From a virus: a DNA stretch of 64,000 bases. The first letter of the stretch is position 1; the number at the start of each line of letters is the position of its first letter. Shown here in pieces: positions 54,102 to 61,909 of the stretch. The notes beneath the pieces are model-generated. The model worked only from the letters and a program-made list of their open reading frames with translations. It was not told the origin of the DNA and made no database searches. Where the stretch lies: the IMG/VR virus record IMGVR_UViG_3300014208_000032, positions 73,116 through 137,115 of that record; one strand, written 5' to 3'. A program made the position numbers and the translations under genes.

Positions 54102-55532
54102 ATCACACACCTTCATTTGCACGGAGTAAATTCTATCCTTGACGGGATTGGAACACTTGATGAATACGCAAAATTAGCAAAAGAAAAAAACCATAAATCA
54201 GTTGCTTTAACAGATCACGGAAAAATGTCTGGTTATCACGAGCACCAAAAATCTTGTGATAAATATGGTGTTAAGCCAATCTTTGGAGTAGAGGCATATG
54301 TTGTTGATAATCTCATCACATTAGAAGGTGAAAAAAGAATTCGAGGAAAAAATAATCATCTTATTCTTCTTGCTAAGGATAGTGTTGGTTATAAAAATAT
54401 GCTTAAATTAAATTATATGTCTTTTGCTGATGATTCACATTTTTATTATAATAACAGATTTTCTCATGAAGAACTTTTCGAACACTCACAAGGAATTATG
54501 ATTGGAACTGCTTGCATTGCTTCTCCATTTGCTTATAAACTAGCAAAACAAAATGAAATTGAAGCAGAAAAAATATTTAAAATGTATCTTGATGTTTTTA
54601 AATCTAATATGTATGTCGAAGTTCAAATTAACGAAATCACAAATAAAATGGATAATTTAGAAAAAGGGCAATATTCTGTTAATGAGTTTTTGATTAAATT
54701 AGCAAAAAAATATGATGCCCCAATATGCCTTACGGGAGATGTCCACTATGCCAATAAAGCAGATGCCGAGATACAGAAACTTTCTTTATTGATATCTCAA
54801 AAAAAGACCGTGTTTGATACAGATGGATTTGAGTTGGAAGGGAAAAATTTGTTCTATCAAGACACTGATGATTTTCTAAGATTGAATAAAGAATTTAATT
54901 ATAATTATCCAGAAAGAGATTTATATGAATGGATGGATAATACAGATATAATTGCAGAACAATGCAATTTTATTATGAAGCAACCAAAAAGAATGAGATT
55001 TCCAAATTTAACTGACGATGATGATCTTCTTTTAATAACAAAATCAAGAGAAGGATTAGAGAAAAAAATAATAGAAAAACAAATAGTAAACAAAAAAGAA
55101 TATAGAGATAGATTGAATTACGAATTAGAAGTTATTTTAAGAAAAGGTTTTGCCAGTTATATGATGGTTTTGTGGGATATTTTTCAATTTACAGAAAAAG
55201 AAAATATAATGTCTGGTTCTGGACGCGGGTGCTTCTTGCCAAACGAAATGGTGTCTATGCTGGATGGTTCTTCAAAGCAAATAAAAGATGTTATTGCTGG
55301 AGAAATGATAAAAACAGGATTAGGTTTAGAAATGCCAGTTAAAAACGTTCTTGAATATGATTGTGACGAGAATGTTTCTAAAATAAAATTAAAAAACAAT
55401 GAAGAAATAAATTGCACCAGTGATCATAAGATTTTTGTTGTCAAAAAAGGATTGGATAAAAAAATAGAAAACGCAAAATGGGTTAAAGCAGAAGAAATAA
55501 AAAAAGGCGATTTTCTTGTTAAAAATTTATAG
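54102..55532 (+). CDS. dnaE: DNA polymerase III alpha fragment 1 (PHP domain to GRG) fused to an N-terminal split intein
   Basis: THLHLH..SILDG, ALTDHG, KPIFGVE, HLILLAK, LTGDVHY, EL..I...GF..Y, GSGRG then CFLPNE. The HLHLH motif needs a start upstream of the track TTG (54117); ATC 54102 lies 7 nt after SD GAGGT. Confidence 0.92.
   Translation: MTHLHLHGVNSILDGIGTLDEYAKLAKEKNHKSVALTDHGKMSGYHEHQKSCDKYGVKPIFGVEAYVVDNLITLEGEKRIRGKNNHLILLAKDSVGYKNMLKLNYMSFADDSHFYYNNRFSHEELFEHSQGIMIGTACIASPFAYKLAKQNEIEAEKIFKMYLDVFKSNMYVEVQINEITNKMDNLEKGQYSVNEFLIKLAKKYDAPICLTGDVHYANKADAEIQKLSLLISQKKTVFDTDGFELEGKNLFYQDTDDFLRLNKEFNYNYPERDLYEWMDNTDIIAEQCNFIMKQPKRMRFPNLTDDDDLLLITKSREGLEKKIIEKQIVNKKEYRDRLNYELEVILRKGFASYMMVLWDIFQFTEKENIMSGSGRGCFLPNEMVSMLDGSSKQIKDVIAGEMIKTGLGLEMPVKNVLEYDCDENVSKIKLKNNEEINCTSDHKIFVVKKGLDKKIENAKWVKAEEIKKGDFLVKNL
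55230..55532 (+). other. Split intein, N-half (100 aa)
   Basis: Block A CFLPNEMV directly after GRG; block B CTSDHKIF; W.KAEEIKKGD then stop. Confidence 0.9.
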
Positions 55533-55582
55533 ATAACACAACCTAACGTCCTACCTGTAAAGATAAACATGGGTGGTTAAAA

Positions 55583-56581
55583 ATGAGAAGTTTTGAAGAA
55601 ATATTAGAACAAAGAAAAGATTTGTGTTATGAATTAACACTTGAGGAATATTACTTTAATATTAACAAAGTAAAAAAATCAATATATTGGTTTATAATTG
55701 GGAAGTGTGGTATTTGTGGAAAAGATGTGAGAGCTTGTGTAAAAAGTTTTTCAAAAAGATTGATGATAGAAAATAAAAATATTTTATTTTGCTCTGGTGG
55801 TTGTGCTTCAAAATTTAATTCCAAACAAGATAGTTGGAGAAAAAAGAATAGCGATGCTCAAAAAATAGCGCAAAATAAACCAGAACAGATAGAAAAAAAT
55901 AAACAGGGTGTTTTAAGATCAAGAAGAGACCCTGTTAATTATAAAAAATGGTACGATGCTTGTCTTTTAGCAAATAGAAGTGAAAAAAGACGAAAAGAAG
56001 CTTCAATACATTTTAAAGAGTTGTGGAAAAACGCAGATTTTGCTAAAAAAATAATGAACAATGCTGGAGGTTGGCATAATTCAATAAAAGGAATATTCAG
56101 AAGTAAGTTTTCTGGCGAAATTTTCTTTGATAGTTCTTATGAACTATTGTTTTTAATATTTATGGATTTAGAGAAAAAAACAGTAAAGAGATTTGATGGG
56201 TATATTCAATATAATTTTAATGATAAATTTAGAAGATATTTTCCTGATTTTGTTGTTGAAAATAAAATTTATGAAATAAAATCTAACAAAATACTAGAAA
56301 TGAGACAGTTTGGCTTTGAAGAAATGAAAGCAAAAATGAATCATACTTATGAGTTTATTAAAAATAATAATTATGATGATTTCTTCTTATTAAAAGAAGA
56401 AGAGTTAACAGAGTTGAGTGGAAATATTTGGTATAGAAAATATTTATTTAGTTGGATGGTGGATGATGGTTTTATAATAAACCATAAAAATGGTTCTTCT
56501 TTGATGGTAAAAAAAAGAGAGGGATCTTATATAGCAAATGGCGCAAAGGAGATTTATAAAATATGGAATTCGTTGAAGTAG
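55583..56581 (+). CDS. Free-standing PD-(D/E)xK (TnsA-N-like) homing endonuclease between the intein halves
   Basis: N-terminal CGICG/CSGGC, basic helical repeats, FDSSYEL, YFPDFVVENKIYEIKS nuclease core; reading frame differs from both intein halves. Confidence 0.7.
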   Translation: MRSFEEILEQRKDLCYELTLEEYYFNINKVKKSIYWFIIGKCGICGKDVRACVKSFSKRLMIENKNILFCSGGCASKFNSKQDSWRKKNSDAQKIAQNKPEQIEKNKQGVLRSRRDPVNYKKWYDACLLANRSEKRRKEASIHFKELWKNADFAKKIMNNAGGWHNSIKGIFRSKFSGEIFFDSSYELLFLIFMDLEKKTVKRFDGYIQYNFNDKFRRYFPDFVVENKIYEIKSNKILEMRQFGFEEMKAKMNHTYEFIKNNNYDDFFLLKEEELTELSGNIWYRKYLFSWMVDDGFIINHKNGSSLMVKKREGSYIANGAKEIYKIWNSLK

Positions 56582-56814
56582 AAGATATTGAAGATTTTTA
56601 TTATAAAGGAAAAGTGTATGACTTAACAATACCAGTGGATCACTCATACAAAATAAATGGATATACAGTTCATAATTCATTTTGTGGAAGCCTTACTGCT
56701 TATTCTCTTGGAATATCTACAATAGATCCAATAAGATTTGGGTTAATGTTTGAAAGATTTTTAAATGAACAAAGAGTTCAAGATTCCGTTTTCAATTTTT
56801 TTGGAGAAGAATAA
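56563..56814 (+). CDS. dnaE: C-terminal split intein (38 aa) plus dnaE fragment 2 (45-aa extein)
   Basis: VYDLTI...TVHN|S (intein ends at 56676), then SFCGSLTAYSLGISTIDPIRFGLMFERFLN, which continues the DnaE GRG|S..GSLVAY.LGIT.IDP..FERFLN motif. Confidence 0.92.
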   Translation: MEFVEVEDIEDFYYKGKVYDLTIPVDHSYKINGYTVHNSFCGSLTAYSLGISTIDPIRFGLMFERFLNEQRVQDSVFNFFGEE

Positions 56815-56864
56815 ATAGTATAAACAAGACAAGATAATTTTATAATAGTTTTTTGGAGGGCAAA

Positions 56865-60622: not shown

Positions 60623-60798
60623 CAATAACACCAACTTGTCCTAAGTGTAATGGGAAAGATGTAAGTGTGGTTCCGTATTTTGATGTTTTTAATTACTATT
60701 GTCAAAAATGTGGAAAGTATAAATCCTATATAAAAATAGGAGGTAAATCAATAGAATATATTTTTGATAGTGGAGAACAAATAATAAAGGAGAAATAG
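60619..60798 (+). CDS. Small zinc-ribbon protein (59 aa), not in the ORF track
   Basis: CPKC...CQKCG; coupled to NADAR (ATGA). Confidence 0.5.
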   Translation: MTITPTCPKCNGKDVSVVPYFDVFNYYCQKCGKYKSYIKIGGKSIEYIFDSGEQIIKEK

Positions 60799-61053
60799 GT
60801 GAATTATGAAGAAATAAAAAAACTTTGTGACGAAAAAGTAAAAGAATTTCCAGATTATGAAAAAAGATATAAAAAAGAGTTAATTATGATCAAAAGAATT
60901 TACGACTCTGGAAGAAATCTTTATGATGAGTTTATAGAGAAAAAAGACAAAATTGATGATAGGTATGTTATTCCTTTTTTAATGGGATTAACAAAAACAT
61001 TATCAAATAAAACACCAGAATATATTCAAATCAACGAAGGAAACAGCGGAGGT
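60799..61053 (+). CDS. dnaE: DNA polymerase III alpha fragment 3, exon 1
   Basis: Ends EGNSGG at the U of the P1 U-G pair; joins exon 2 in frame to give SGG|IDVDVDF. Confidence 0.75.
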
Positions 61054-61279
61054 AAACGCTTAATGCCTCTTACATCAGAAACGGTGTAATTAAACGTGTT
61101 AAACTCGGCGAAAACCCTGAGAAGGACAACACCGAAGCAAACCCTTCCGGTAAATTATTTACTGATAGAAGTGGGAGCAGTAGAGACTATAATACACTAC
61201 CTGAATGCTTATGTAAAAGGTAAAGGAATAGTCCAGACCACACACATAATCTAAAAAAGAAAGTGTGGAAAAAAATCTG
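61054..61279 (+). ncRNA. Group I self-splicing intron (226 nt, no ORF)
   Basis: P1 ggaggt/gcctct with U-G at the 5' splice site; P10 ttaat/attga; P3 gtgtta/taatac; P7 gacta/tagtc in AGAGACTA...ATAGTCC; P8 tacct/aggta; P9 ccacac/gtgtgg; terminal G at 61279. Confidence 0.88.
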
Positions 61280-61909
61280 ATTGATGTTGATGTTGACTTT
61301 TCTCCTTCTGGGAGAGAACAAATTATTGATTATTTAAAATCTAAATATGGAGAAGAAAGAGTGTTTGGTGTAGGCACATTTAATCAAATGAAGATTAAAT
61401 CTGCAATTAAGGATGTTTTTCGTGTTTATGGCTTCGAGGAGTTTGGTGAAATTAATGCTTTTACGAAAGTTATGGATGATGCTCTTTCTTATGATGAAAA
61501 CATTGCTAATGTAAAAAGTAATTTTCCGCATCTTTATAAATTTTATCTTCAACATAAACAAAAATTTGATTTAGTTCCAAAATTTCTTGGAAAAGTAAGA
61601 TCGAACGGAATGCATGCTGGGGGCAAGTGCTTATTAGATAAACCCATATATAATTATATTCCAGTTGAAAGAGCAGGTAAGGATGTTGTCACTGCTTTCC
61701 CAGAAAGTGGCTCTGATGCTGTTTTGGATCATTATAAAGTGATTAAACTTGATCTTCTTGGAATTACAGTTCTTGATGTTATTAAATCAACATTAGAAAT
61801 GATAGCAGAAAGTGGAGAAAAAATATTTGAAATTGAAGATAGTGATGGGAAAATTGTGTGGGTATGTGAAAGTTATTATAATAAAATGATAGGAGAAAAA
61901 AATGGATGA
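61280..61909 (+). CDS. dnaE: DNA polymerase III alpha fragment 3, exon 2 (catalytic palm/thumb)
   Basis: IDVDVDF (two catalytic Asp), K.AIKDVFR, GMHAGG, IKLDLLG (third Asp); ends before the fingers domain. Confidence 0.92.
   Translation: MDVDVDFSPSGREQIIDYLKSKYGEERVFGVGTFNQMKIKSAIKDVFRVYGFEEFGEINAFTKVMDDALSYDENIANVKSNFPHLYKFYLQHKQKFDLVPKFLGKVRSNGMHAGGKCLLDKPIYNYIPVERAGKDVVTAFPESGSDAVLDHYKVIKLDLLGITVLDVIKSTLEMIAESGEKIFEIEDSDGKIVWVCESYYNKMIGEKNG

Follow-up and report, generated by a model that had tools for sequence, protein, structure and literature searches.

Can the alpha subunit of DNA polymerase III (DnaE) be built by a phage from parts that are encoded in separate genes? The question is raised by a stretch of viral DNA of 64,000 nucleotides (nt), hereafter the window, which represents bases 73116-137115 of the 159,813-bp IMG/VR virus record IMGVR_UViG_3300014208_000032 (CheckV completeness 69%); the DNA, that of an uncultured jumbo phage, originates from groundwater metagenomes and has a G+C content of ~30%. 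From position 54035 of the window onward, and all on the + strand, lie the pieces of such a polymerase, which we refer to as genes A, B and C. The features of a DnaE are present, namely a PHP domain, a palm with a GRGS loop and three catalytic aspartates, fingers, HhH and OB regions, with A and B together spanning positions 4-100 and 101-260 of the PF07733 profile; they are distributed over three genes, each with its own start and stop, rather than joined in one continuous polypeptide. An earlier note on this DNA, made from the letters alone, had proposed a heteromeric C-family polymerase of at least three final chains, and the conserved gene boundaries, the natural A-B and B-C fusions and the predicted A+B complex that we describe here argue for it. 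We consider it likely that the locus encodes a DnaE-type polymerase made of three separately translated, non-covalently associated proteins, and that three selfish elements are removed before these proteins come together.

Three genes and the elements that interrupt them

Gene A is divided between two adjacent open reading frames (ORFs) of one host gene, each of which carries one half of a split intein, and the splicing residues of both halves are intact (Cys1, TSDH and VHN/S; here and below a slash marks a junction). After the VHN of the C-terminal half the frame continues as S-FCGSLTAYSLGISTIDP...FERFLNEQR, followed by 12 further residues and a stop at 56814. When the intein is excised, A aligns without gaps to the 429-amino-acid intein-less genes of four related contigs (GSGRG/SFCGSL in the window versus GPxRGSGGGSL in the relatives) and the mature protein has ~420 residues, and it is presumably by trans-splicing that its two parts are ligated. 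The first canonical start of gene A is TTG 54117. An ATC at 54102 sits 8 nt after AAAGAGG, and initiation there adds T-H-L-H-L-H, which matches the HLHxH found at the beginning of the PHP domain in all relatives; the TTG start would remove the first two PHP histidine ligands, which are invariant in those relatives. Because the conserved HLHLH metal ligands are then included, we accept the non-canonical ATC 54102 as the most likely start. Read from that position, the window gene keeps the PHP ligands H, H, D, H, E, H, C, D and H, which are invariant in 41 relatives, and also every other residue that is invariant across these 41. PHP domains of some bacterial DnaEs proofread and, given that all nine ligand positions are invariant, A may also do so.

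The endonuclease ORF stands in a frame of its own between the intein halves. Its Pfam matches, to TnsA-N and DUF7487, are weak (E 0.003-0.006); it also matches phrog_33911 (3e-13) and phrog_15427 (endonuclease), and its nearest Atlas clusters are viral DUF7487/TnsA-N/NUMOD3 proteins. Family searches gave no Vsr or GIY-YIG match, and a phmmer comparison with the chain sequences of the PDB returned nothing significant.

In gene B the frame of exon 1 closes at 61089 and a second frame opens at 61265, and the sequence between the exons has the features of a group I intron. Only with a 3' splice site after G61279 is the frame kept and the sequence of the intron-less homologues obtained, and spliced B (294 residues, EGNSGG/IDVDVDF) aligns without gaps to 23 uninterrupted homologues of 284-306 residues, the closest of them 86% identical. 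P1 pairs GGAGGU (61048-61053) with GCCUCU, placing U61053 opposite G, and direct pairing and comparison of two introns identify P2, P7, P8 and P9. The Rfam model RF00028 aligns over its full length (model positions 1-253) to 61044-61249 with 23.2 bits (E 7e-4 in a 401-nt search); when 14 kb were scanned with Rfam at E<=1, the intron was not found. The second intron of the comparison, 201 nt long and homologous, interrupts the same codon in the related contig L005, where P1 is GGUGGU/GCCACC; P1, P2 and P9 differ from those of the window on both strands with pairing kept, and P7 and P8 are conserved, the comparison comprising two sequences only. When the two introns were aligned with MAFFT and folded with RNAalifold, P7, P8 and P5/P6-like helices emerged, but P1 and P2 were misaligned. 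A tblastn search of 50,697 phage records with B exon 1 gave no match. We infer from this anatomy that the B messenger RNA self-splices. We also note that a zinc-ribbon ORF at 60619-60798 is in frame with gene B, with a single TAG between them, and that the Shine-Dalgarno sequence of gene B is located inside the end of this ORF.

The remainder of the enzyme would be provided by gene C, which a profile search of the genome record located at 63988-~65940, beginning 2 kb after B. The fingers family PF17657 is matched just past the window end at E 3e-33 and in the gene C protein at 9e-31; the protein also matches HHH_6 (PF14579, 1e-16), and the OB fold is weak, at 22.5 bits versus a cut-off of 27. 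Removal of a mini-intein from C yields a gap-free alignment to uninterrupted homologues and a mature protein of ~506 residues, which is consistent with cis-splicing of C. The insertion site in cyanobacterial DnaE, FAEY/CFNK, is one that we take to lie 3 residues before the mini-intein site of C and to be unrelated to GRG/S of gene A. At the cut between B and C, both sides carry residues that are extra relative to fused BC proteins, namely the B tail (61800-61909) and ~18 residues at the head of C (63988-64045); the conserved B tail, E.LYLIEEDGI.K.VP.SY, forms a predicted beta-hairpin, and the two additions may constitute a second docking module. That the B tail is the relic of a dead split intein is not supported (hhalign probability against N-inteins 2.6%).

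Each of the three genes belongs to a unit preceded by a consensus promoter of the sigma70 type (Table 1). Perfect TTGACA-N16-18-TATAAT sequences number 6 in the window versus 0.14 expected from shuffles, and five of the six are on the + strand, at 35893, 54035, 59324, 62430 and 63071. These five are near-identical, TTGACA-AAAAAA(A)TTTTTT(T)xAGxTATAAT, and seem to represent a class of phage promoters whose A/T spacer is conserved; from their shared spacer it follows that A, B and C probably lie in separate but similarly controlled units.

The four observations of the earlier note are all borne out by these results. A PHP domain running to GRG and an N-intein at 54102..55532, a C-intein with a 45-residue extein at 56563..56814, and a B polypeptide with all three catalytic aspartates (IDVDVDF, KLDLLG) and a group I intron are where the note had them, as are about ten unrelated genes over ~4 kb before B. 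Some details need amendment. The promoter that B had been credited with as its own exists and is perfect, but it lies 1.45 kb and seven small genes upstream; the two promoters envisaged for the system become at least three, near-identical and serving three genes. The fingers, HhH and OB regions, which the note placed elsewhere, do fall essentially outside the window, but their gene starts inside it. Two splicing chemistries, of protein and of RNA, are indeed indicated, but protein splicing would occur twice, in trans in A and in cis in C.

Table 1. Features of the split polymerase locus (window positions)
Feature	Position	Strand	Remarks
Consensus sigma70-type promoter upstream of A, TTGACA-17-TATAAT	54035..54063	+	A/T spacer common to 4 other copies
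Gene A N-extein: PHP and first palm segment to GSGRG	54102..55229	+	PF02811 6e-34; PF07733 profile 4-66
Split intein N-half and stop, 100 residues, Cys1, TSDH	55230..55532	+	Intein_splicing, Hint
Free-standing endonuclease gene, 332 residues, zinc-finger N-terminus	55583..56581	+	TnsA-N-like/DUF7487 PD-(D/E)xK family
Split intein C-half, 38 residues, ends VHN, +1 Ser	56563..56676	+	Start overlaps end of endonuclease gene
Gene A C-extein, 45 residues, SFCGSLTAYSLGISTIDP...FERFLNEQR, with 12-residue tail and stop	56677..56814	+	PF07733 profile 56-100
Ten intervening genes, unrelated to polymerase	56853..60798	+	One NADAR; others without family
Consensus promoter of B-containing transcription unit, perfect TTGACA-17-TATAAT	59324..59352	+	
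Gene B exon 1, 85 residues: degenerate copy of palm N-segment, without GRGS	60799..61053	+	GTG start behind AAGGAG
Putative ORF-less group I intron, 226 nt	61054..61279	+	5' splice site after U61053 (U.G in P1); terminal G61279
Gene B exon 2, 209 residues: IDVDVDF, KLDLLG, thumb, conserved beta-hairpin tail	61280..61909	+	PF07733 101-260, 6e-29
Consensus promoter of C-containing unit	63071..63099	+	Further copy 62430-62458
Gene C start (fingers, HhH, OB; 650 residues)	63988..64000, on to ~65940 past window end	+	Overlaps stop of preceding ORF
Mini-intein in C, 144 residues, SFNK/CFSGDC...FASN/SHAVAY	~64549-64980	+	Without counterpart in L007 and L009 homologues

Gene ends and inserts among relatives

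If the division into A, B and C were peculiar to this genome it would carry little weight; it recurs widely. On four contigs from other samples (L005, L006, L007 and L009; B ~50% identical) the order is A, a gap of 1.6-3.4 kb, B, a gap of 0.8-8 kb, and C, and the ends of all three genes are kept. The gap between A and B again holds unrelated genes, among them a PIF1 helicase in 4/4. A search with the A protein of L009 found 445 proteins at E<=1e-10, and among the best 120 of these there are 107 that consist of A only (415-441 residues), 6 in which A is followed by an N-intein as in the window, 1 with a contiguous intein and 4 fusions of A with B, the other two being 441 and 450 residues long. 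The tail that follows the FERFLN region of A is conserved in the 107 A-only relatives, with the consensus xDVVYDYFGEx.

The four A-B fusions (P0074, P0076, P0091 and P0110; 708-714 residues) read FERFLSDxRSPDxVPDYFxK(~10 residues)M..LK..C...SGG-IDVDxD and terminate at the usual end of B, with C separate. Since they retain both the A tail and the B head, both of these extra segments appear to belong to the mature enzyme. A FastTree phylogeny built from the A parts groups the four fusions in a single sub-clade of 13 rows, which is nested within split forms and has a split outgroup as well; the tree suggests, without proving it, that the fusions are secondary. Fusion at the other cut is seen as well. 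When a profile of 23 B proteins was compared with 1.84 billion representatives, B-only and A-B forms came first, followed by many PHP-less BC proteins of 550-1280 residues in which a B-like head is followed, according to Pfam, by fingers and HhH. One of them, P0185 (816 residues), begins 3 nt after a separate 517-residue PHP gene whose product stops 10 residues beyond the same FERF..R point, so that the same cut is found in a distant lineage.

The intervening elements behave differently from the gene ends. Neither intein nor intron is present in L007 or L009; L005 has the intron in B described above and, inside C, a split intein with an HNH gene (L005:12247-15060); L006 has a split intein and another ORF inside B after KIRQ (L006:8130-10324); and P0068 has a contiguous intein at GRG/S. 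Because the inserts differ between genomes and the boundaries are constant, the splicing elements look like sporadic selfish additions to a fission of A, B and C that is itself old and conserved. As a side observation, the inteins of P0068, L005 and L006 together make up a small natural intein collection. The suggestion, made when the locus was first read, that the splitting serves as a regulatory checkpoint or as an escape from defences receives no support from these comparisons, in which most relatives have the three genes without intein or intron.

To judge from these sequences, the phage shares its three-gene layout by descent with a large clade of uncultured phages. The best matches to A, B or BC among cultured phages are only ~30-35% identical, and those in Rhizobium phage B1VFA and Geobacillus phage GBK1, the two whose annotation we examined, are contiguous genes.

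Recurrence on independent contigs also bears on whether the arrangement might be an artefact of assembly, as a contig derived from a metagenome can be chimeric. A 9.4-kb contig of run X1, possibly the source run of the record, spans 54000-60498, and run X2, from a separate groundwater study, contains identical contigs over 55238-56180, 60187-60848 and 60881-61549, which cross the junction of N-intein and endonuclease, the start of B, and exon 1-intron-exon 2, such matches being a measure of the presence of the DNA and not of its expression. With the junctions thus reproduced in a second study, and the same gene order present on five independent contigs from other samples, the misassembly that the earlier note had allowed for is so improbable that we give it next to no weight.

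A duplicated palm segment and the predicted A+B assembly

What lies at the cut between A and B, and could it hold the two proteins together? In an hhalign comparison the 85-residue head of B matches the heads of BC proteins with 97.2% probability (E 4e-11), and the BC heads in turn match the 120 residues that precede the DxD motif in canonical DnaEs (GRGS...FERFLN) with 99.7% probability (E 8e-27). Compared directly with canonical sequences the B head falls in the right register with a P of only 0.0015, and a hidden Markov model built only from this head found no canonical DnaE at E<10 (Z=1e6); the homology of the B head to the palm is therefore transitive, via the PHP-less BC proteins. The GRGS loop is gone from the heads of B and BC and is kept in A. 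There thus appear to be two copies of a single palm segment, one on each side of the cut, functional in A and degenerate in B; partial duplication and then complementary loss are the probable origin of this layout. To the eye, the sequence S-MDVIYDYF of the A tail looks like a degenerate version of the catalytic strand, SMPDIDIDF, and an AlphaFold2 model of the fusion P0074 shows both copies with the same helix order and final strand; these observations are suggestive only.

The P0074 model is itself confident (predicted local distance difference test score, pLDDT, 90; predicted template modelling score, pTM, 0.86). Foldseek matches it to Taq Pol III alpha (2hpi; E 1e-40, template modelling score 0.69), with 4iqj, 7pu7 and 2hnh also found, and the matches to the DnaEs of Taq, E. 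coli and M. tuberculosis range from E 1e-40 to 1e-36. Complex modelling of the fragments, which the earlier note had proposed, was run for separate A and B with homologues free of intein and intron (P0029 for A, P0023 for B) and with alignments of our own making. Three runs each gave an interface score (ipSAE) of 0.90, and none of the 3 controls exceeded 0.01; the mark set for the tool is reached by 58 of 80 solved complexes and by 2 of 110 mismatched pairs, counts that hold only roughly here because our own alignments replaced those of the calibration. The three runs share at least 91% of their contacts, with a partner pLDDT of at least 84, and the confident interface comprises A 382-385 (the invariant R-G-S), the A tail at 416-429, B 28-58 and B 74-95, which includes D89, D91 and D93. 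The prediction indicates that A and B can complete one DnaE fold, and it says nothing on binding in the cell. Given that GRGS is lost from the B head and kept in A, the active site is probably composite, with GRGS from A and the aspartates from B.

It could be argued that A and B, or B and C, are joined covalently, by a split intein that is cryptic or has degenerated, or by another form of ligation, at the break between FERFLN and DxD, leaving fewer chains; the A tail and the B head are, after all, both extra relative to canonical DnaE. The break between FERFLN and the DxD motif was described from the start as having no intein, however, and we found no flanking intein motif. There is no Hint or intein family match in the A tail or the B head, the first position of the A tail has no conserved Cys, Ser or Thr, and the B head ends in SGG/I and not in Asn plus a nucleophile. 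The B head is homologous to the N-segment of the palm and not to an intein, the natural A-B fusions keep both segments, confidently folded, in the mature chain, and the B tail fares no better against N-inteins (2.6%, as above). Covalent joining is accordingly hard to credit.

A second alternative concedes that the proteins are separate and makes B plus C a self-sufficient, PHP-less polymerase, with A as an accessory PHP subunit (for proofreading or as a pyrophosphatase) that stays outside the active site. Although PHP-less BC proteins are common, although one BC contig (L014) shows no A gene within its 4.3 kb, and although PHP domains can act as separate exonucleases, we regard this as unlikely: the GRGS loop, present in A, has been lost from B and from the BC proteins, A has ~100 palm residues beyond the PHP domain and the same end point in distant lineages, an A gene lies beside BC where context is available, and the predicted interface sets the RGS of A against the DxD-bearing segment of B.

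For the three-chain enzyme that we prefer, the following sequence of events can be proposed. A, B and C would be translated separately from three promoter-matched units; A would be ligated by trans-splicing, the B messenger RNA would self-splice and C would excise its mini-intein, each of these steps being needed for activity. A would supply the PHP domain, with the full set of metal ligands that an active proofreading PHP has, together with the palm segment that bears the GRGS nucleotide-binding loop; B would supply the degenerate, GRGS-less palm copy, the three catalytic aspartates and the thumb; and C would supply fingers, HhH and OB and would close the active site. The short conserved tail of A would dock on the duplicated head of B, bringing GRGS and the PHP domain of A against the DxD of B. 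On balance, we also favour the broader proposal that this is a full-size replicative C-family polymerase with one active site formed from three chains that are held by degenerate duplicated segments remaining where the gene was split, and that the arrangement is old and widespread, existing in the forms A+BC, AB+C and A+B+C.

Role, precedents and meaning

Does the phage depend on this enzyme? The record contains only the three PF07733 matches of this locus, and a complete dnaE elsewhere, which would have told against the earlier note's proposal, was not detected in the 69%-complete record. Neither PolA nor PolB (PF00136) was found in the 160-kb record or in a 201-kb relative (80% complete), which likewise has only split DnaE pieces. 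In relatives the surrounding genes form a replication and recombination module, which includes a PIF1 helicase, a 5'-3' exonuclease and SbcCD-like genes. Since no other polymerase is found and the neighbourhood is one of replication, the split DnaE is probably the replicative enzyme. We note that a tubulin-family gene (PF00091) lies in this module on one relative, ~5 kb downstream of C (L007:18449-19471).

Several points weigh against the interpretation that we have developed. DnaE has been solved as a single chain, and the A+B score may owe something to the model having learnt that fold. When the B head is compared by hhalign with the palm segment of A itself, the register is the expected one but P is 0.17. 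The Rfam score of the intron is under the gathering score of 50. We found no phage-encoded beta clamp, and the phage was found only in DNA runs of groundwater metagenomes and in no RNA run. Lastly, the missing part of the 69%-complete record could hold another polymerase or an intact dnaE. This last point lends itself to a different explanation, in which the three genes are what is left of a decaying dnaE that mobile elements have destroyed, and the phage uses the polymerase of its host or one whose gene lies in the third of the phage genome that is missing from the record; three mobile elements with a TnpB gene nearby do mark the region as heavily invaded. Against decay, all frames are open, the catalytic, PHP and GRGS residues that are invariant in 41 and 23 relatives are all kept, the same gene ends persist at 45-70% identity over more than 100 lineages, neither intein has lost its splicing residues, the predicted intron core looks intact, and the 201-kb relative is also without another polymerase. 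We therefore think decay very unlikely.

Two neighbours of the locus deserve mention in their own right. The sole gene in the gap between A and B with a family encodes a NADAR protein (PF08719, 3.9e-38; 60170-60622). NADAR-type enzymes can strip ADP-ribose from DNA, and this gene is a candidate counter-defence gene. Upstream of A, on the opposite strand, is a TnpB/IS605 OrfB gene (50834-52093) with HTH_OrfB, OrfB_IS605 and Cas12f1-like TNB domains; at its 3' end a RAGATH-18 RNA match (50857-50920; 32 bits, below the gathering score of 44.9) could be the guide RNA of TnpB.

Parts of this arrangement have precedents. DnaE genes with a split intein and a free endonuclease are already known, as are phage replication genes that contain inteins or group I introns and, more generally, phage polymerases that are split. 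The closest case is that of the group 2.2 jumbo phages, for which a split minimal Pol III alpha was predicted from distant genes, in two pieces and beside a PolB (Iyer 2021, PMC7824862). The cut in that enzyme, between the NTP (nucleoside triphosphate)-binding and Mg2+-binding subdomains, corresponds to the A-B boundary described here, but theirs is a minimal core without PHP or other domains, in two pieces and accompanied by PolB, whereas the present enzyme is full-size, consists of three pieces, shows a degenerate duplicate of a palm segment where A and B are cut, and occurs with no PolB or PolA detected. The layout of the two A pieces and the endonuclease is that of the fractured genes, in which a split intein is combined with a free-standing homing endonuclease and of which three metagenomic DnaE loci, one with a further intein, were described (Dassa 2009, PMC2677866). 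The endonuclease here is TnsA-N/DUF7487-like and theirs are Vsr-like or GIY-YIG; moreover, such a fracture accounts for one break only, whereas the A-B and B-C breaks are intein-less. In cyanobacteria, dnaE-n and dnaE-c are separate genes with a naturally split intein (PMC2677866), and as in gene A one junction is mended by trans-splicing; their single break is healed into one chain, however, and two breaks of the present enzyme would stay unhealed. Non-covalent assemblies of gene fragments with other genes between the pieces are also described for the split PolB gp43A/gp43B of Aeromonas phage 25 (PMC2677866) and for the split beta/beta' RNA polymerase subunits of phiKZ-like jumbo phages (PMC7824862). 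These belong to other polymerase families, and the passages of those two papers that concern them report no duplicated overlap at the cut. In the open-access literature we found no description of a three-gene DnaE or of a PHP-containing DnaE split without an intein, nor of a full-size PHP DnaE in three genes whose cut is marked by a degenerate duplicate and whose relatives include fused as well as split forms.

DnaE is usually regarded as a single-chain enzyme, and a conserved three-chain version would show that the parts of Pol III alpha are separable. If the composite site exists as proposed, it would be an example of a nucleotidyltransferase active site shared between subunits. The natural split points and docking modules could be of use in the engineering of split polymerases, and the split intein with Ser at +1 and the 226-nt ORF-less group I intron are small parts that can be tested. 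The locus and its relatives would also provide a worked example of fission by duplication and complementary loss in which the fused and the split states are both extant. Many of the "DnaE fragments" in viral metagenomes, finally, are probably subunits and not broken genes.

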